Origin: Rhizomicrobium sp.
Lineage (GTDB): Bacteria > Pseudomonadota > Alphaproteobacteria > Micropepsales > Micropepsaceae
DNA: 64,000 nt
Reading direction: 5' to 3'
Assembly: GCA_037200985.1 (NCBI GenBank)
Contig: JBBCGJ010000001.1
Location: 718,756 to 782,755, forward strand
Shown in pieces: positions 3-10,421 of the stretch. Positions within the stretch are counted from its first letter, which is position 1. The number at the start of each line of letters is the position of its first letter. The notes under the pieces were generated by a model. It was not told the DNA's origin, ran no database searches, and worked only from the letters and a program-made list of their open reading frames with translations. The position numbers were made by a program, and so were the translations under genes.

Positions 3-1721
3 CCGGCGCGGGCAGAGTGGAGTGCGTTGTTCGGCGAGGACTGCTACTGGCGCGACCTGCTGGCCTTCACTTGGAACATCGTGACGCTCGAGGGGCGCGA
101 CGCGATCGCCGCCATGGTCCGGGAGCAGGCGGGTTCCATCGGCGCCGGCGGTTTCGCGCCCGACGTTCCCGCGCTGCCGATGACCGACGAGACGCAGGGC
201 TGGTTCACCTTCGAGACCGCGACCGCGCGCTGCCGCGGCCATGTCCAGCTTCGCGACGGCCGCGCCCATATCCTTCTCACCGCCATGATCGAGCTCATCG
301 GCCATGAAGAGATCGGCGGACCGCGCCGCCCCGACGGCATCGCGCATCGCGCCGGCAGGGGCCGCCGGACCTGGCGCGACGAGCGGGAGGCGACCGCCCG
401 CACGCTCGGGCACAGCGTCCAGCCCTATTGCCTCATCGTCGGCGGTGGCCAGAACGGACTGATGCTCGCGGCGCGCCTCAAGCGCCTCGGCGTGTCCGCC
501 TTGGTGATCGACGCGCTGGAAAGGCCCGGCGACAGCTGGCGCGCGCGCTATCACTCGCTCTATCTGCACGATCCGGTCTTCCTCGACCACTTCCCCTATC
601 TGCCCTTTCCCGACCATTGGCCGCTTTACTCGTCCAAGGACAAGATCGCCGATTGGCTGGAGATCTATGCCAAGGCGATGGAGATCGATTTCTGGGGCGG
701 TGCGCTGGGCACCGCCGCCCGCCATGACGCGAAGACGGGCGAATGGACCGTCACCGTCGAGCGCGGCGGCGAAACGCTGACGCTCCGGCCCAGGCAGTTC
801 GTCCTCGCCACCGGCCTTTCGGGCGCGAAGCATATTCCCGCGATTCCCGGCGCCGAGCGCTTCGGCGGCAAGCACTATCATTCGGCCGACCATGGCAGCG
901 GCGTCGGCCTGGCCGGCAAGCGCTGCGTCGTCATCGGCTCGAACAATTCGGCGCATGACATCTGCGTCGATCTCTGGGAACACGATGCGCGGGTGACGAT
1001 GATCCAGCGCTCTCCTACCATCGTGGTGCGCGCCGACACGATGCGCGAGGTCTCCAAGGACATCTACTACGCGCAGCCCGGCGCGGACGTCGACCTTGCC
1101 GATCTCATGGGCGCGACCATGCCGTTCCGCCCGCGCACGGCGTTCGAGAAAGGCTTTGCCGACCATCTGCGGAAGATCGACGCCGATTTCTACACGCGCC
1201 TGGAAAAGAGTGGCTTCCGGCTCTGGCACGGCGAAGACGAGACCGGCTTCTTCATGGCGTATTATCGCCGCGCCGCGGGCTATTACATCGACGTCGGCGG
1301 TTCGGATCTGATCGCCGGCGGCGAGATCGCGGTCCGCCACGGCGAGATCGCCGAGATCGTCGAGGACGGTTTGCGCCTGGCGGACGGTACCTTCCTGCCG
1401 GCCGATGTCATCGTTTATGCGACCGGCTATCGGCCCATGCACGAATGGACCAGCCATCTCGTTTCGCCCGAGATCGCGCGCAAGGTCGGGCCCTGCTGGG
1501 GGTTGGGCTCGGGCACCGAGGGCGATCCCGGTCCCTGGGAAGGCGAGCTGCGCAACATGTGGAAGCCGACGGCGCAGGAGGGACTCTGGTTCCAGGGCGG
1601 CAATCTCATGCAGAGCCGCTTCCATTCGCTGCACCTCGCATTGCAGCTCAAGGCGCGGATGGAAGGCCTGCCGACGCGGGTCTTTCGCGCGCCGCCGATA
1701 AAGATGACGCTGAGCGACTAA
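3..1721 (+). CDS. FAD/NAD(P)-binding flavin-containing monooxygenase family protein, 5' end cut by the window edge
   Basis: The frame is open from the window edge, with no stop upstream of the TTG at 27. Dinucleotide-binding motif IVGGGQNGLMLAARL, second nucleotide motif VIGSNNSAHD, and ATGY near the C-terminus. Confidence 0.8.
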   Translation, partial: PARAEWSALFGEDCYWRDLLAFTWNIVTLEGRDAIAAMVREQAGSIGAGGFAPDVPALPMTDETQGWFTFETATARCRGHVQLRDGRAHILLTAMIELIGHEEIGGPRRPDGIAHRAGRGRRTWRDEREATARTLGHSVQPYCLIVGGGQNGLMLAARLKRLGVSALVIDALERPGDSWRARYHSLYLHDPVFLDHFPYLPFPDHWPLYSSKDKIADWLEIYAKAMEIDFWGGALGTAARHDAKTGEWTVTVERGGETLTLRPRQFVLATGLSGAKHIPAIPGAERFGGKHYHSADHGSGVGLAGKRCVVIGSNNSAHDICVDLWEHDARVTMIQRSPTIVVRADTMREVSKDIYYAQPGADVDLADLMGATMPFRPRTAFEKGFADHLRKIDADFYTRLEKSGFRLWHGEDETGFFMAYYRRAAGYYIDVGGSDLIAGGEIAVRHGEIAEIVEDGLRLADGTFLPADVIVYATGYRPMHEWTSHLVSPEIARKVGPCWGLGSGTEGDPGPWEGELRNMWKPTAQEGLWFQGGNLMQSRFHSLHLALQLKARMEGLPTRVFRAPPIKMTLSD

Positions 1722-1868
1722 GTCTGATATCCGACATTGCGGCGTCGCCAGCGGGACAGGCGCAACAATACCGGCGAATATTGGAACCATTGAACGTCGG
1801 AATTGTTGCTTGAGTAGGGGCGTTGGGTTCAGCGCACAATCGGCAGCGGCGCAGCTTGCGCCGGCGAG

Positions 1869-2822
1869 ATGATGCAGATGGAACTGCCATGGACCTATTT
1901 CGCTCTCGGCCTCTGCATTCGGTCCGAACGCCCGATCCTTGAGCTGGCCGTGTGCGTCGACGGCGCCGGCTGTCCCGGACCTGTCGTCGAAATCCGATGG
2001 GCGGGCCTGGACCCTGACCTCCCGGGCGCCCGCTATCGCGGCCCCATCATCCAGGTCGGCGACAATGAAATCCAGCTCGCCGTCGGCGATATCGCGCGCT
2101 TCCGCATGCGGGCCGGCAATGAGATCGTTGTCGACGCGCTGCCCGGCGCGTCGGAGCGCGACGTCCGCGTCTATCTGCTCGGCGCGGCGCTCGGCATGTT
2201 GTGCCATCAGCGCGCCTTGCTGCCGCTGCACGCCAATGCCGTCGTGATGCGCGGCCGGGTCGTCGCCATTGCGGGCTGCTCGGGCGCCGGAAAATCGACG
2301 CTCGCCGCGCATTACCACGACAAGGGCTACGAGATCCTGTCCGACGATGTCTGCGCCGTGAGCTTTCCGGACGAGGGCGCCCCGCTCGCATGGCCAGGTA
2401 TCCCGCGGCTGCGGCTGTGGCGGGATTCGGCGGAAGCTTCGGGCCGGGACGTGGAACGGCTGGAACAGGTCGCCGACGGCCTGGAAAAATACCATTGGCC
2501 GGTCAAATTGCACGCGGCGCTGGAAGGCCTGCCGCTCGAGCGAATCTACGTTCTGTCCGATGCCGGGCGCGGAACGCGGCCCGGGATTTCGCGGCTCACG
2601 GGCTCCGACGCCCTGGAAGCGGTCATGGAACAGACCTTTCGCCGCGAATATCTCGGCCTGATGGACGGCGCGCGGCAGCGCTTCGCAAACGGCATCGCGC
2701 TGCTGGCAAGCGTGCCGGTTTTCCGCGTTCCCTGGCCGCACGATTTCGGCTTGCTGGCGGCGGAAGCGGCGCGGCTCGAAGACCACATCCTCGACGACGC
2801 AATGGCGGATCGCGCGTTGTGA
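1869..2822 (+). CDS. HPr kinase/phosphorylase-related kinase (lasso precursor Ser kinase type)
   Basis: 317-aa ORF with P-loop IAGCSGAGKSTLAAHY followed by ILSDDV. Its TGA overlaps the GTG of the next gene (GTGA). It lies in a lasso B2/A/B1/C context. Confidence 0.8.
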   Translation: MMQMELPWTYFALGLCIRSERPILELAVCVDGAGCPGPVVEIRWAGLDPDLPGARYRGPIIQVGDNEIQLAVGDIARFRMRAGNEIVVDALPGASERDVRVYLLGAALGMLCHQRALLPLHANAVVMRGRVVAIAGCSGAGKSTLAAHYHDKGYEILSDDVCAVSFPDEGAPLAWPGIPRLRLWRDSAEASGRDVERLEQVADGLEKYHWPVKLHAALEGLPLERIYVLSDAGRGTRPGISRLTGSDALEAVMEQTFRREYLGLMDGARQRFANGIALLASVPVFRVPWPHDFGLLAAEAARLEDHILDDAMADRAL

Positions 2823-3286
2823 GACCATTCCGCCTTCGCGAGCTCGCGGCGGCGAGCGCGGGCAAACGACTGCTTCTGTGCGAGACGCTGGTGGCGCTGT
2901 CCGTGGCGAGCCTGGCGATCAGGATTTTGCCCTTCCGGACCGTCATGGCCACCGCGCGCCACATCGCGCGCGGTCCGGCGCGTTCCGGCGCGGAGCGGCA
3001 CGCCACCTGCGCACGCATCCGCTGGTCGGTGACCACCTGCGCCGGTCGCCTTCCCTGGCATCCGCTTTGTTTTCCGCAAGGGCTGGCGGCGCAATGGATG
3101 CTGCGCCGCCGCCGAGTCCCATCCGTTCTTTACTACGGCGCCGCGCCCGACGCCGCGAAGGGAATCGTGGCGCATGTGTGGGTGTGCGATCGCGATGTGC
3201 CCGTCGTGGGAGGACAAGCGGCGGAAGGCTTGGCCGTCCTGGCGAGATTTCCGTCCGCCGAGTCGGGCCACGCGGCATCCTCTTGA
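2819..3286 (+). CDS. Lasso peptide biosynthesis B2 protein (transglutaminase-like leader peptidase)
   Basis: GTG at 2819 gives 155 aa. Cys/His/Asp context PLCFPQGLAAQWML ... AHVWVCDRD is typical of lasso B2 proteases. The longer 2201 start would overlap the kinase gene out of frame. Confidence 0.85.
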   Translation: MRPFRLRELAAASAGKRLLLCETLVALSVASLAIRILPFRTVMATARHIARGPARSGAERHATCARIRWSVTTCAGRLPWHPLCFPQGLAAQWMLRRRRVPSVLYYGAAPDAAKGIVAHVWVCDRDVPVVGGQAAEGLAVLARFPSAESGHAASS

Positions 3287-3365
3287 CGGCGGTCGGCATC
3301 TGCAGGCACGTGGTATGCGTGAAGCTTGGTTCGCCGAACTATTTGTCGATGGCGTGAATTAATGT

Positions 3366-3389
3366 GTTCCACCGCTTTTATAGTGGAAC
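3366..3389. promoter_or_regulatory. Perfect inverted repeat GTTCCAC-N10-GTGGAAC upstream of the lasso precursor gene
   Basis: 7-bp arms inside the AT-rich 3350-3458 gap between B2 and the precursor. Confidence 0.4.
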
Positions 3390-3400
3390 TTTACCGTTCT

Positions 3401-3428
3401 CTTGACCGTATAGTCTTGTGACTATACT
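3401..3428 (+). promoter_or_regulatory. Candidate sigma-70 promoter CTTGAC-N16-TATACT overlapped by the perfect palindrome GTATAGTC-TTGT-GACTATAC (3408-3427)
   Basis: The -35/-10 hexamers and spacing fit the alphaproteobacterial housekeeping consensus. They lie ~30 nt upstream of the precursor ATG. The 8-bp-arm palindrome spans the spacer and the -10. Confidence 0.45.
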
Positions 3429-3458
3429 TGTTATCCCTACAACCTGAAGGAATACGCA

Positions 3459-3608
3459 ATGGCAAGAAGCGACGAGCAGCGGGAATGGGCGGGCGTGTCA
3501 CCTTCGGCACGCGCGGTTTATGAGAAACCCAGCTTCCATCGGATCGGCGCCGATGAAGCGGAAACCGGAATCCAATTCGGTCCCGAAATTCTGATCCTAC
3601 TGAGTTGA
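3459..3608 (+). CDS. Lasso peptide precursor (A peptide), 49 aa: MARSDEQREWAGVSPSARAVYEKPSFHRIGADEAETGIQFGPEILILLS
   Basis: Hand-translated; absent from the ORF track. GAAGGA RBS lies 7 nt before the ATG. The gene sits between B2 and B1. Leader has Y-x-x-P-x-F-x3-G-x5-T-G spacing. One Glu in the C-terminal part, and a C-terminal Ser consistent with the adjacent kinase. Confidence 0.75.
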   Translation: MARSDEQREWAGVSPSARAVYEKPSFHRIGADEAETGIQFGPEILILLS

Positions 3609-3633
3609 GCGCGCCCGCCTGCGATAGGCGCGC
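3609..3633 (+). promoter_or_regulatory. GC-only stem-loop immediately after the precursor stop codon
   Basis: GCGCGCC-N11-GGCGCGC begins 1 nt after the TGA at 3606-3608. No U-tract follows. The B1 gene starts at 3656. Confidence 0.45.
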
Positions 3634-3655
3634 GTCGACCCGAGGCTGCATCTGA

Positions 3656-3970
3656 ATGGACAACAAACCGCCGCTGACGTCGGCGTCTCGCGTCGTGCGC
3701 AGCAGCAACCTTGTTCAGGCCGAGGTCAATGGCGAGATCGTCGCCCTGCACATCGAAAAAGGTACCTGCTACGGACTGAACAAGGTCGGCTCGCGCGTCT
3801 GGGAGCTGGCCGCCTCGCCGGTTTGCGTCTTGGACATCTGCGCGATTCTTTCCAAGGAATATGACGTTGCGCCGGCCATCTGCCAGAGCGACGTCCTCGA
3901 TCTGCTCGAAGGCTTGCGCGCGGAGGGTTTGATCGACGCGCTTCCGGCGAATACCCCGCCGGGGCCCTAA
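3656..3970 (+). CDS. Lasso peptide biosynthesis B1 protein (PqqD-family RiPP recognition element)
   Basis: 104 aa with a PqqD-like pattern EVNGEIVALHIEKGTCYGLNKVGSRVWEL ... DVLDLLEGL. Located immediately upstream of the cyclase gene. Confidence 0.85.
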   Translation: MDNKPPLTSASRVVRSSNLVQAEVNGEIVALHIEKGTCYGLNKVGSRVWELAASPVCVLDICAILSKEYDVAPAICQSDVLDLLEGLRAEGLIDALPANTPPGP

Positions 3971-3972
3971 AG

Positions 3973-5913
3973 GTGACCGCCATCGCCGGCATGTGGCGTC
4001 TCGACGGCCGGAGCGACGCGGCGCCGGCCTGCGCCCGCATGCTGGCGGCACAGAAAATCTACGGACCCGATACGGCGGATCGATGGGACGACGGTTTCGT
4101 CGCCGTCGGCCGGGCGCTGTTTCGGCTGCTGCCTGAAGACGTTCATGACATGCAGCCCCTGGTCGGCTCGTCCGGCAAGCTTGTTCTCGTGGCTGACATC
4201 CGGCTCGACAACCGCGACGACCTTGTCTCCGCGCTCGGCCTGTCGCCGACGTTCGCACGCACACTCTGCGATGCGGCGATCCTGCTGGCGGCCTTCGAGC
4301 GCTGGGATGTCGGATGCCTCGACCGCATCGTCGGCGACTTCGCCTTCGCGGTCTGGGATATGCAGCGCCGCCGCCTCGTGCTGGCGCGCGATCCTCTGGG
4401 CCAGCGGCCGCTTCACTACCACCGCGGCGCCGGCCTGTTCGCCTTTGCGACCATGCCCAAGGGCCTGCATGCCCTGGCCGAGATCCCGCGCGCGCCGGAC
4501 GAGGACCGCGTGGCGGAATTCGTCGTCCTGCTGCCGGAAACGGGCTCACCGTCCTACTTCGCCGGCATCGAGCGCGTCGAGCCCGGCCATGTCGTCACGG
4601 TCGATGCGAGCGGCGTCGCGAGCCGCCGCTATTGGGAACCGTCGCGCCCGAGCGCATCCTTCAAGACGGCGGGCGATTATGAGGAGGGGTTGCGCCATTA
4701 CGTCGATCTGGCCGTACGGTCGCGGCTGCGCGGCGTGTCCGGCACGGTCGCGACGCATCTGAGCGCGGGGCTCGACAGTTCCATCGTCACGGCGACGGCT
4801 GCGAGGGAAATGGCGCGTTCGGGAGGGCGCGTCATGGCGTTGACCGCGGTCCCGCGCGAGGGCTATGCGGCCCGGCCGGACGGCGCATGCATCAGCGACG
4901 AGAGCCCGCACGCGGCATTGACCGCGGCGCTCCATCCGAACATCGACCATGTCGCGATCAGCGGCGACGCGACCGCGCTGCTTGGAGAGCTCGACCGCTA
5001 TTTCTTCCTGTTCGAACAGCCGGTCCGCGATCTGCCCAACGGCGCCTGGGTCTGCGCCGTCAACGACGCGATCCGCCGCCGAAAAATCTCCATATTGCTG
5101 CCCGGCTATTTGGGAAATCTGACGCTCAGCTACAACGGCGTCGAACGCCTGGCGCAGGATGTCGGACGCGGGCGCTGGCTCAGCTGGTATCGCGAATGCG
5201 CCGCGGTGATCCGCAGCGGACATATGAGCCGGTTGGGAGCGCTCGGCGCCAGCTTCGGCCCGCAATTGCCGCCTTCGCTATGGGCCTGGCTGAAGCGGGT
5301 GCTGAGGGGCCAGGATCTCGACGTGACCTCCCACACCGGCATCCATCCGGGGCGGCTCGCGGAACTCGATCTGAAGGGCAGGGCGCGGTCGCGCGATCTC
5401 GATTTCACCTATCGGCCGCGCAAGGACGGCTTTGCGACCCGGCTTTGGGCGCTTCGTCGCGTCGACATGGGAAACGTGAACAAGGGCACGCTGGCCGGCT
5501 GGGGCATCGACCAGCGCGATCCGACGACGGACCGCCGGCTGGTGGAATTCTGCCTCGGCGTACCGGCGGGGCTGTTTCTCGCGAACGGCATCCCGCGGGC
5601 GCTCGCGCGCCGGGCCTTTGCGGACCGCGTCCCCGCCGCCGTCCTCAACGAACGGCGCCGCGGCCGTCAAGGCGCCGATTGGCACGAAAGCGTCGACGCG
5701 GCGCGTGTCCCGATCGCGGAGGAAATCGCGCGGCTCGGCGATTGCGCCCCCGCGGCCCGGACGCTCGACCTGGCGCGCTTGCGAGGATTGGCGGCCGACT
5801 GGCCGCGCGAGGGATGGGAGCGGGAATCGACCGAGCTGTCCTATCGCATCGTCCTGATGCGTGCCTTGGCGGTGGGACATTTCCTGCGCCGGGCCGGCGG
5901 CGGCAATATGTGA
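3973..5913 (+). CDS. Lasso peptide isopeptide bond-forming cyclase (asparagine synthetase-like C protein)
   Basis: 646 aa, GTG start 2 nt after the B1 stop. Asn-synthetase-B-like architecture with PP-loop HLSAGLDSS. Confidence 0.9.
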   Translation: MTAIAGMWRLDGRSDAAPACARMLAAQKIYGPDTADRWDDGFVAVGRALFRLLPEDVHDMQPLVGSSGKLVLVADIRLDNRDDLVSALGLSPTFARTLCDAAILLAAFERWDVGCLDRIVGDFAFAVWDMQRRRLVLARDPLGQRPLHYHRGAGLFAFATMPKGLHALAEIPRAPDEDRVAEFVVLLPETGSPSYFAGIERVEPGHVVTVDASGVASRRYWEPSRPSASFKTAGDYEEGLRHYVDLAVRSRLRGVSGTVATHLSAGLDSSIVTATAAREMARSGGRVMALTAVPREGYAARPDGACISDESPHAALTAALHPNIDHVAISGDATALLGELDRYFFLFEQPVRDLPNGAWVCAVNDAIRRRKISILLPGYLGNLTLSYNGVERLAQDVGRGRWLSWYRECAAVIRSGHMSRLGALGASFGPQLPPSLWAWLKRVLRGQDLDVTSHTGIHPGRLAELDLKGRARSRDLDFTYRPRKDGFATRLWALRRVDMGNVNKGTLAGWGIDQRDPTTDRRLVEFCLGVPAGLFLANGIPRALARRAFADRVPAAVLNERRRGRQGADWHESVDAARVPIAEEIARLGDCAPAARTLDLARLRGLAADWPREGWERESTELSYRIVLMRALAVGHFLRRAGGGNM

Positions 5914-5940
5914 TGCGCGCCGCGGCTCCGGCGACGGCCG

Positions 5941-7449
5941 TCACGAAAGCGGCTTGCGGCACCAGAATTCGTACATTTGCGAAAACAGGAACGGATCGTC
6001 CCGTTCCAGTCGGGCCCAGGCGGCGATGTCCCGGTAAAGCGCGCCGATCGGTGCGCCGGTGCGGTGCTGGGCCGCGCGTCGGCGCGGCGGCAGACCGTAT
6101 CCCAGGAAGACCAGGCCCAGCGTCTCGATCGCACGCATGATGCGCGGCACGTCGAAGGCGATTTCATGCCGGTGCAGGAGCAAATCGAACACGCTGGCCA
6201 GCGTGTAGAAGTCGGGCGATCCCGCGACCAGGGCCGGTGCCTTCTCGACCAGGCGCCTCCGCACCGCGCGCAGGAGATCTGCGTCGACAGGCTGCGCCGC
6301 CAGATCGGCGATGAGGGTCTGTGCCGCCCGTATGCGCAGCCGCGCCACCGCGCTGTAGACCATCACATGCATGACGCCGCCGGGCTTGAGCACGCGCACG
6401 AGCGCTTCCCATCCCGCCTCGGGATCGGGCAGGTGATGGAGCACGCCGCTGCAGGTGATGGCGTCGAACCGGGTTTCCAGCGACGCGACGTCGTGAAGAT
6501 CGAGCGCGAGAAACGTGATACTGCGCAATCCCGCCGCGGCGCAACGCTCTGCCCCATAGCGCAGGCTGGCCTCGCTTATGTCGATCGCCGTGATGTGGGC
6601 GTCCGGACATTGACGCGCCCAGATGGCTGCTTCGCGCCCGGTGCCGCAGCCGGCGACCAGGATTTCCGCGCGCAGGGGTGGCGTGCCGCGCGGGCCGCCG
6701 GGATCGAGCTTCTCGATCAGACGCGGCAGCGTCGTGGTCTTGGAGACCATGACGCGGGACCACGCCGGATAAGGAAAGGACTCGTATTGCCCCGCGACGG
6801 CGCGGGTCGTCGGGTCGGCTTGGGCCGGCCGCACGACATCGTAGGGCGGCGGCGGCCGATAGGCGCGCGCGACGTCCGTGTCGCCTTCCGTGCCGAGGCG
6901 TTCGTCTTCTTCGGCATCGAAAAGCCATGCCCCGCCGTTTCGCACGGTCTGCGCTGCCAGCGCCGCGACCGAACGCGGAAACGTAGGCCAGCGCCCCGAC
7001 AACAGCAGCCAGCGGCGAAGCGCGGTCAGGGAAATCTCGACATCCAGATTCGCGACATGCGTCTCGCGAAGCAACCGCTGCGCCAGCAGGTTGGTCTCCA
7101 GCCACCGCCCGACATCGTCCGGCGCGGCCGACGCCTGCAAGAGCGGCGTCTCGCGCGAAAGGAGGACCCATCCCGCCGGGCCGATGAACCACGGATCGAC
7201 ATCCGCGTCGTCCAGCAGGGCATGCAAGGACGACGCCCTATCCGGCCCGATCAGATCCGGGCTGTCCAGAAGAAGGCGTGCGATGAGAGCCTTTGTCTGC
7301 CGATCGTCCGGCGCGGTGTCGAGGATGCTCCATGCCGCGGCGAGGGCTTCGCCGGCCCGCCCCGCGGCCTCATGGCCCAGGGCGGTGGAGCGCAGCGTCT
7401 CCCGCTCGTTTTCGAAAGAGGGGAGGGTCGCGCCGGTTCCGTCCGTCAT
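5941..7449 (-). CDS. Class I SAM-dependent methyltransferase with a ~270-aa N-terminal domain of unknown function
   Basis: ATG at 7449 is 4 nt downstream of the radical SAM stop. Motif I ILVAGCGTGREA, then LDLHD and VLKPGGVM, preceded by QYESFPYPAW. I do not recognise the N-terminal half. Confidence 0.8.
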   Translation of the reverse strand: MTDGTGATLPSFENERETLRSTALGHEAAGRAGEALAAAWSILDTAPDDRQTKALIARLLLDSPDLIGPDRASSLHALLDDADVDPWFIGPAGWVLLSRETPLLQASAAPDDVGRWLETNLLAQRLLRETHVANLDVEISLTALRRWLLLSGRWPTFPRSVAALAAQTVRNGGAWLFDAEEDERLGTEGDTDVARAYRPPPPYDVVRPAQADPTTRAVAGQYESFPYPAWSRVMVSKTTTLPRLIEKLDPGGPRGTPPLRAEILVAGCGTGREAAIWARQCPDAHITAIDISEASLRYGAERCAAAGLRSITFLALDLHDVASLETRFDAITCSGVLHHLPDPEAGWEALVRVLKPGGVMHVMVYSAVARLRIRAAQTLIADLAAQPVDADLLRAVRRRLVEKAPALVAGSPDFYTLASVFDLLLHRHEIAFDVPRIMRAIETLGLVFLGYGLPPRRRAAQHRTGAPIGALYRDIAAWARLERDDPFLFSQMYEFWCRKPLS

Positions 7450-7453
7450 GCCG

Positions 7454-9277
<1,824 letters not shown>

Positions 9278-9455
9278 CGACCCTCCAGGCCGGCGCGCGC
9301 CGGTGGACCGTACTACGCTTGTTGAACAATGATTATTGGAAAAAGATGGCGCAGTTCTTGGGATGATGCGCCAAAAGCCGCAAATACTCCAATCGTCGCC
9401 CGAAGGTGGTCGACGGCTTTCAAAGTTCCGTATCCGCGGCCCGTGCCGGTATTCC

Positions 9456-10421
9456 CTATTGCGGGAACGTCTCGCCGACCATCTCCTCGCTTTTCGCCCA
9501 GAGCGCCTTCGCGTGCTCGGGATCGAGCGCATAGGCCCTTACGCCGGCGCGCAATTCCGCGCCTTCCATGACCTCGGCGACATGGCAGTCCTCGCAGAAC
9601 TTCCCGCCGACCAGGCCCGCCGGCGCGACGAAGCCGCTCCACACCGATGTGGCCGCGCCTTGCGGAATCGTCTTCCATTTGAACCCGGGTGCACCGGCGG
9701 GCGTGTTCTCATTGATGGATTTGATCAGGGCATCCCGGACTTCATCCGTCATATAGCGCCCGAGTTCGGTCTGGATGCCGCCGGGATGCACCGCCGCGGC
9801 GCGCACGCCCCGGGCCTTGTGCCGCCGGTCGAACTCCACCGCGAACAGGACATTGGCCGTCTTGGACCGGCCATAGGCGCCGAACTCGGTATAGGGCGTG
9901 TGCTCGAAATTCGGGTCTTCGAGATCGACATCGGCGAACCGGTGCCCCGACGACGACAGATTGACCAGGCGTCCCCCGTCCTTGATGAGCGACGCGATCC
10001 GGTTGACCAGCACGAAATGCCCCAGGTGATTGGTCCCGAACTGCGTCTCGAAACCGTCGGCCGTCTGGCCCTTGGGGCAGGCCATGACGCCGGCATTCGC
10101 GATGACGACGTCGAACGGTTTGCCGGCGGCCACCAGCGCGTCGGCGCATTTGCGCACGCTCGCGAGCGACGCCAGGTCGAGCTCGACGAGTTCCAGACCG
10201 CCGCCCTTGGCGGCCTGCGTGCGGACAGCCTCCGTCGCTTTGCGCGCCTTGTCCAGATTGCGCGCCGCGCCGACGACCTGGGCGCCATGCGCCGCCAGCG
10301 TGCGGGCGGTCTCCACGCCAAGGCCGGCGGACACGCCGGTCACCAATACGCGCATGCCCGTGAGGTCCACGCCGGAGAGCACCTCGTCGGTCGTGGATTC
10401 CGCTCCGAATTGCGCTGCCAT
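9456..10421 (-). CDS. SDR family oxidoreductase
   Basis: ATG at 10421, 321 aa. VTGVSAGLG Rossmann motif, NAG, catalytic YGRSK. Confidence 0.9.
   Translation of the reverse strand: MAAQFGAESTTDEVLSGVDLTGMRVLVTGVSAGLGVETARTLAAHGAQVVGAARNLDKARKATEAVRTQAAKGGGLELVELDLASLASVRKCADALVAAGKPFDVVIANAGVMACPKGQTADGFETQFGTNHLGHFVLVNRIASLIKDGGRLVNLSSSGHRFADVDLEDPNFEHTPYTEFGAYGRSKTANVLFAVEFDRRHKARGVRAAAVHPGGIQTELGRYMTDEVRDALIKSINENTPAGAPGFKWKTIPQGAATSVWSGFVAPAGLVGGKFCEDCHVAEVMEGAELRAGVRAYALDPEHAKALWAKSEEMVGETFPQ

Follow-up and report, generated by a model that had tools for sequence, protein, structure and literature searches.

A small conserved lasso-type peptide precursor with an unusually placed Glu and a linked radical-SAM methyltransferase gene

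Does a 49-codon ORF lying in front of lasso peptide-like genes of Rhizomicrobium sp. encode a genuine precursor, and if so, how can a ring be formed when the only available Glu sits too close to the leader for the textbook rule? The question arose in the analysis of a 64,000-nucleotide stretch of contig JBBCGJ010000001.1 (assembly GCA_037200985.1, positions 718,756 to 782,755), hereafter the window. The ORF (3459-3608, plus strand) runs from ATG 3459 to TGA 3606-3608, is preceded by a GAAGGA ribosome-binding site (3446-3451) located 7 nt before the ATG, and translates to MARSDEQREWAGVSPSARAVYEKPSFHRIGADEAETGIQFGPEILILLS. Counting back from a cleavage after Gly37 gives Y21(-17), P24(-14), F26(-12), G30(-8) and T36(-2), as was noted in the sequence-only reading. 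Glu43 (3585-3587) is the only acidic residue after Gly37, and Ser49 is the last residue.

The ORF is real and strongly conserved. A word-indexed search found nine homologues of 61-100% identity, from Rhizomicrobium MAGs where a source names them, and a profile search of 1.8 billion representatives found 42 more (representatives at 50% clustering). These more than 50 homologues have a variable N-terminus and share an almost invariant C-terminus, [YW]xxPx[FL]...AE[T]G[I]xxGPEILILLS, and occur in Alphaproteobacteria and one gammaproteobacterial MAG. Codon comparison with related loci (designated here by L and a number) shows clear purifying selection in this frame, with synonymous/non-synonymous codon differences of 17/1 versus L084, 13/1 versus L004, 11/2 versus L085 and 16/6 versus L034. 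In every related locus with enough flanking DNA to judge, the ORF directly precedes a PqqD/B1 gene or the cyclase gene. No Pfam or NCBIfam model matches the peptide, and the homologues in NCBI MAGs are named only 'hypothetical protein'. A six-frame motif scan of the window revealed no other precursor-like ORF.

The ORF lies inside a complete lasso-type cluster on the plus strand. The first gene (1869-2822) encodes an HprK-like kinase (K) of 317 aa. Its matches to the HprK-related kinase models TIGR04355/TIGR04352 are local and weak (about 1e-8), and PF07475 was matched as well; however, the His of LPLHA, the P-loop GCSGAGKST and the SDD motif correspond to the H/K/DD motifs aligned for PadeK, ThcoK, SyanK and BsfK. 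Homologues of the kinase lie next to the precursor in L001, L004, L034, L085, L087 and L089. The gene for the B2 leader peptidase (2819-3286, 155 aa), which completes the cluster, has an inferred GTG start overlapping the kinase stop (GTGA). The protein scores 70.5 bits with NF033537 (lasso_biosyn_B2, cutoff of 33) and also matches PF13471 (Transglut_core3). Downstream of the precursor, the B1 gene (3656-3970) encodes a PqqD-like RRE protein of 104 aa, matching PF05402 at 62 bits and NF033536 at 65 bits, below its cutoff of 80; a PDB search returned TbiB1 (5V1U, E=2e-9) and 9x90_B. The asparagine-synthetase-like cyclase (C, 3973-5913, 646 aa) matches PF00733, PF13537 and PF13522, and its best NCBIfam hit is the lasso cyclase model NF033535 at 300.6 bits, which is below the cutoff of 525. 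The PDB sequence search gave nothing for B2 or the kinase. No exporter gene is in the cluster.

A promoter-like element, TTGACC-N15-TATACT (3402-3428, plus strand), enclosing a perfect 8-bp palindrome GTATAGTC-N4-GACTATAC (3408-3427), was found upstream of the precursor, and TTGACC...TATA is partly conserved in L004. Its function is only inferred. The sigma-70 promoter scan found no promoter in 1700-6100 and did not call this element because its spacer is 15 nt. The GC-rich hairpin after the stop codon (3609-3640) folds no better than shuffled sequence (z=0.31), which does not support an attenuator or terminator.

Two further genes converge on the cyclase from the minus strand. The first (5941-7509) encodes a class-I SAM methyltransferase with Methyltransf_11/12/25 domains; the ORF is 522 aa, but homology starts near residue 60, so the real start is probably internal. 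It is present in the same position in L004 (87%) and L084 and absent from L005, L034 and L085. The second, missed in the sequence-only reading, encodes a B12-binding radical-SAM RiPP C-methyltransferase (7454-9277, 607 aa from ATG 9277, with the ORF running to 9532). It scores 560.7 bits with TIGR03975 against a cutoff of 281.85, matches PF02310 and PF04055, and contains CWWGQKHHCTFC, a Cx7Cx2C motif as described for PoyC; the PDB search gave only a remote hit for it.

Importantly, the radical-SAM gene co-localizes specifically with this precursor type. Among L001-L083 it was found in 3 of 5 loci with a GPE-type precursor and in 0 of 78 other loci (Fisher p=1.1e-4): in L004 (86% identity, same layout), L005 (55%, directly convergent on the cyclase) and L034 (51%, divergent from the kinase). 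L084 and L085 also carry it, and so do L087 and L089. In a reciprocal test, homologues of the enzyme of 49-67% identity were looked up in four contexts, three of which carry B1/B2/C/kinase genes, while the fourth (L088) has only an Asn-synthase fragment and an NTP_transf_5 gene. The two loci in which a precursor could be read encode ...GINNGPEILILLS and ...GVQFGPEILILLS, that is, ...ESGINNGPEILILLS (Sphingomonas sp. QA11, CP098774.1) and ...ETGVQFGPEILILLS (a Nevskia MAG). In total, four different gene arrangements were seen. In the literature searched, we found no report of such an enzyme in a lasso pathway, and a 2024 review of RiPP methyltransferases lists only O-methylation for lasso peptides; nor did the searches return any description of this peptide family. 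The FMO-like gene at 27-1721 and the genes beyond 9456, which encode an SDR, an aldehyde dehydrogenase, a DsbD-like protein and an MFS transporter, are not conserved with the cluster. JmjC hydroxylase, sulfotransferase and NTP_transf_5 genes occur in related clusters but have no homologue in the window.

It is worth noting that the unusual position of the Glu is not a peculiarity of this gene alone. The cyclase has more than 2,290 homologues at E<1e-30, and a scan of one genome per species returned 80 loci at 47-84% identity, most of them from Alphaproteobacteria. Only a few of these carry the GPEILILLS-type peptide, whereas most of the rest carry a related small ORF of the form W-x-x-P-x-[LV]-(7 residues)-A-E-(7-8 residues)-[D/E]-(4-8 residues)-Ser-stop. 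In an alignment of 87 unique precursors, numbered from the leader Trp/Tyr as index 1, [YW]xxPx[FLVI] is conserved in all (Y21-E-K-P24-S-F26 in the window, 3519-3536), and A14 and E15 are near-invariant (A 76/87, E 83/87). Index 16 is T31/S5/A3/N2/V2 in the GPEILILLS subfamily and A/L/D/G/T/V/N/E in the rest, where Thr occurs in 3/44. Index 17 is Gly in 40/43 of the subfamily and G/A in 26/44 of the rest, and is never Pro. Index 18 is I/V/L in the subfamily and Pro in 4 of the 44 others. The Glu is invariant in the subfamily (43/43), and the acidic residue of nearly all other members is at index 23 or 24, mostly 23; Ser is C-terminal in essentially all relatives. The canonical -17 register starts the core at index 18 and therefore places the acid at core position 6 or 7 across the superfamily. 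The exact fit of the leader motif proposed in the sequence-only reading holds only in the closest relatives, since Tyr is Trp in most homologues, Gly(-8) is not conserved and the Thr is variable.

Based on the above results, we suggest, with a probability of about 0.6, that ORF 3459-3608 is the genuine substrate peptide of the surrounding seven-gene pathway (K, B2, A, B1 and C on the plus strand, the methyltransferase and the B12 radical-SAM enzyme on the minus strand). All steps of this pathway are inferred from homology. B1 binds the leader strand Y21-x-x-P24-x-F26. The radical-SAM enzyme possibly C-methylates one or more aliphatic residues of the core, with the conserved beta-branched positions I38, I44 and I46 as candidates, although its substrate and site are guesses. 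B2, activated by B1, cuts the leader within A34-E35-T36-G37/I38 (3558-3572; the slash marks the canonical site), and the cyclase adenylates Glu43, the presumed isopeptide acceptor, and joins it to the new N-terminus. Ser49, at the end of the near-invariant tail I44-L-I-L-L-S49 (3588-3605), is the presumed kinase target, since C-terminal Ser phosphorylation by HprK-type kinases is reported for paeninodin, ThcoA, SyanA and pseudomycoidin. Our preferred product, tentatively and at somewhat less than even odds, is the 13-mer GIQFGPEILILLS with a Gly1-Glu7 macrolactam and a six-residue aliphatic tail ending in phospho-Ser. The phosphate, and possibly the added methyl groups, may act as the steric lock for a very short threaded tail; otherwise the product is an unthreaded lariat.

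Three cleavage sites (E35/T36, T36/G37 and G37/I38) are admissible, including both cores proposed in the sequence-only reading (12 and 13 aa), and sequence alone does not decide among them. Cleavage before Gly37 gives rings of 7 or 8 residues and matches the pattern of a conserved -2 residue, a variable -1 residue and a small residue 1. However, it puts Glu35 at -2 and Thr36 at -1, and we found no report of a lasso leader with Glu(-2), the reported residues being Thr and rarely Ile, Val or Ala; in a few subfamily members index 17 is N, Q or D, which is odd for a ring-forming residue 1. The canonical cleavage after Gly37 would release IQFGPEILILLS and lead to an Ile1-Glu6 ring of 20 atoms, too small to be threaded. 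The leader FHRIGADEAETG indeed aligns without gaps to canonical -17 leaders, namely the published benenodin-type LIDLGSVTEETK/G and SyanA LVELGSFESLTQ/G; T/S/A/V at index 16 resembles the tolerated -2 set, index 17 (G, N, Q, D) behaves like a variable -1, and wild-type pseudomycoidin, also kinase-associated, is isolated unthreaded. The nearest published B2 relatives (alphaproteobacterial, kinase-type) were assigned the -17 register, but these registers are themselves predictions and the similarity is not decisive. On the other hand, known lasso rings have 7-9 residues, index 16 in the wider superfamily is often D, N, E, Q or G (16 of 44), and Pro at index 18 cannot be the ring amine, while the near-invariant A14-E15 would sit at -4/-3, where canonical leaders show no universal constraint. 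We regard this register as unlikely. If it were correct, the family would be a new class of small lariat RiPPs with a cyclic hexapeptide head, a C-methylated aliphatic tail and a (poly)phospho-Ser terminus, made by enzymes so far known only to make lassos and overlooked by RODEO-type rules requiring an acid at positions 7-9.

Cleavage after Glu35, a register not considered in the sequence-only reading, would release TGIQFGPEILILLS with a Thr1-Glu8 ring and Ala34 at -2. The experimentally characterized kinase-type precursors PadeA, ThcoA and PsmA have Y/W at -15, whereas BsfA has it at -17, so both spacings exist among kinase-associated families, and YSKPSLEVLDVHQTM/A aligns without gaps to YEKPSFHRIGADEAE/T. 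Ring sizes in the superfamily would be 8 or 9, as described for caulosegnins and paeninodin, and one enzyme set making both is known for the caulosegnins. Ala(-2) has been predicted bioinformatically; index 16 is L/I/M/V in the four paralogous precursors of L077 and Gly in L001. Nevertheless, Thr (or D/N/E in relatives) does not seem to have been reported as ring residue 1, Gly at index 17 would be conserved for no obvious reason, and the leader otherwise looks like the -17 type, with G at index 10 and T at index 16, so that this register is doubtful, though slightly less so than the canonical one. Finally, the ORF could be a chance ORF or a substrate of the radical-SAM enzyme only, with the real lasso precursor elsewhere. 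The lack of a matching family model and the absence of some lasso genes near L005, L006 and L084 (B2 and K are missing in L005 and L084) speak for this, but it is very unlikely given the purifying selection, the conserved RRE-binding motif, the position directly before B1 or C in all readable loci, the absence of another precursor-like ORF in the motif scan of the window and the cyclase being the gene most constantly linked to the ORF.

The core is nearly invariant from Rhizomicrobium and Sphingomonas to a Nevskia MAG, which is unusual for RiPPs and points to a conserved molecular target or signalling role. The product would be either the smallest and most hydrophobic threaded lasso, possibly locked by a phosphate, or the first case of lasso enzymes making a ring too small to thread, and the radical-SAM enzyme would add C-methylation of unactivated carbons to the lasso tailoring repertoire. 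Current genome-mining heuristics probably under-score these precursors, so hundreds of clusters may be mis-annotated.

Among known systems, the radical-SAM enzyme resembles the PoyB/PoyC-type C-methyltransferases of proteusins, of which PoyC methylates the C-beta of Ile and Val. The PoyB/PoyC substrates are the long polytheonamide precursors, whereas here the only nearby precursor is a lasso-type peptide with a YxxPxL leader. The closest characterized pathways are those of the HprK-type phosphorylated lasso peptides. The proteobacterial kinase-associated clusters (SyanA of Sphingobium yanoikuyae, BsfA of Bradymonas, and the Novosphingobium/R. rubrum precursors of Duan et al. 2023) share K plus B1/B2/C and, in most cases, a C-terminal Ser; non-Thr residues occur in them at -2. 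The window's B2 is 33-36% identical to the alphaproteobacterial ones, the closest of those tested being the R. rubrum and Croceicoccus kinase-type B2s (33-34%). However, SyanA (24-aa core, G1...D9) and BsfA (G1-D8, Ser3 phosphorylated) fit the -17 rule with 8- or 9-residue rings, so the peptide is not of the SyanA family; in the window's superfamily the acid lies 1-2 residues closer to the motif, and the core is half as long and nearly invariant.

The paeninodin, ThcoA and pseudomycoidin family of Firmicutes shares the split B1/B2, the Asn-synthetase-like cyclase, the kinase with the H/K/D/D motifs and the invariant C-terminal Ser, and the B1 of the window scores best against the Bacillus-type lasso PqqD model. 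Paeninodin has a 23-aa acidic core with an Ala1-Asp9 ring, a leader motif at -15 and Thr(-2), whereas the window has a 12-14 aa aliphatic core (GRAVY +1.2 to +1.5 versus -1.24), no ABC exporter gene in the cluster and an additional radical-SAM methyltransferase. For pseudomycoidin, bulky C-terminal phospho-glycosyl groups were proposed to lock the tail, and with only six residues after Glu43 the same idea is attractive here. If Gly37 is residue 1, the product would have a Gly1-Glu7 ring of the same size as in xanthomonins I-III and, apparently, the same length (13 aa) as huascopeptin (Gly1-Asp7), which is called the shortest lasso peptide; this resemblance is one of size only. Those pathways seem to have no kinase and no radical-SAM enzyme, and their cores are probably hydrophilic to neutral.

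Two genes, for a B12-binding radical-SAM RiPP C-methyltransferase with a Cx7Cx2C motif (window 7454-9532, minus strand) and a class-I SAM methyltransferase (5941-7509, minus strand), converge on the cyclase gene. The radical-SAM gene co-occurs specifically with the GPEILILLS-type precursor in other genomes. The FMO-like flavin monooxygenase gene located directly upstream of the kinase (27-1721, plus strand) is not conserved in related loci, so it is probably not part of the pathway.

It was found that the B2 gene starts at a GTG overlapping the kinase stop codon (GTGA, 2819-2822), which suggests translational coupling, and that B2 is hidden inside a longer mechanical ORF (2201-3286). Just upstream of the precursor RBS, a perfect 8-bp palindrome GTATAGTC-N4-GACTATAC lies between a TTGACC and a TATACT hexamer with a 15-nt spacer (3402-3428). 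This element may be an operator, a promoter or a weak hairpin; TTGACC...TATA is only partly conserved in the related locus L004.

The core G[IV]xxGPEILILLS is almost unchanged between Alpha- and Gammaproteobacteria, as seen in the loci of Sphingomonas sp. QA11 (L087, CP098774.1) and a Nevskia MAG (L089), which is unusually invariant for a RiPP core. In L087, a DDE transposase is inserted between the cyclase and B1. Some loci with this precursor type (L005, L006 and L084) have the precursor and cyclase genes, with or without B1 and the radical-SAM gene, but no kinase or B2 within 5-8 kb, and it is possible that those functions are supplied in trans. In addition, one Rhizomicrobium contig carries a second cyclase, P0034. 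Several related loci carry two to four tandem paralogous precursors ahead of one cyclase (L006, 512-1279; L077, 2516-3705; L046, 3979-4831; and L072), while L056 and L065 have two cyclase genes flanking one B1.

The related clusters also include genes that are absent from the window. A JmjC_2 (cupin-type oxygenase) gene, which may encode a further tailoring enzyme, lies beside the precursor or cyclase in several of them (L084, 6877-7737, minus strand; L089, 6622-7479, minus strand; also L060 and L083). Furthermore, although none is present in the window, NTP_transf_5 nucleotidyltransferase-like genes accompany the related kinase-type clusters in at least 22 of the loci L001-L083, together with sulfotransferase genes in several loci, and this echoes the kinase/nucleotidyltransferase/sulfotransferase sets described for Firmicutes.
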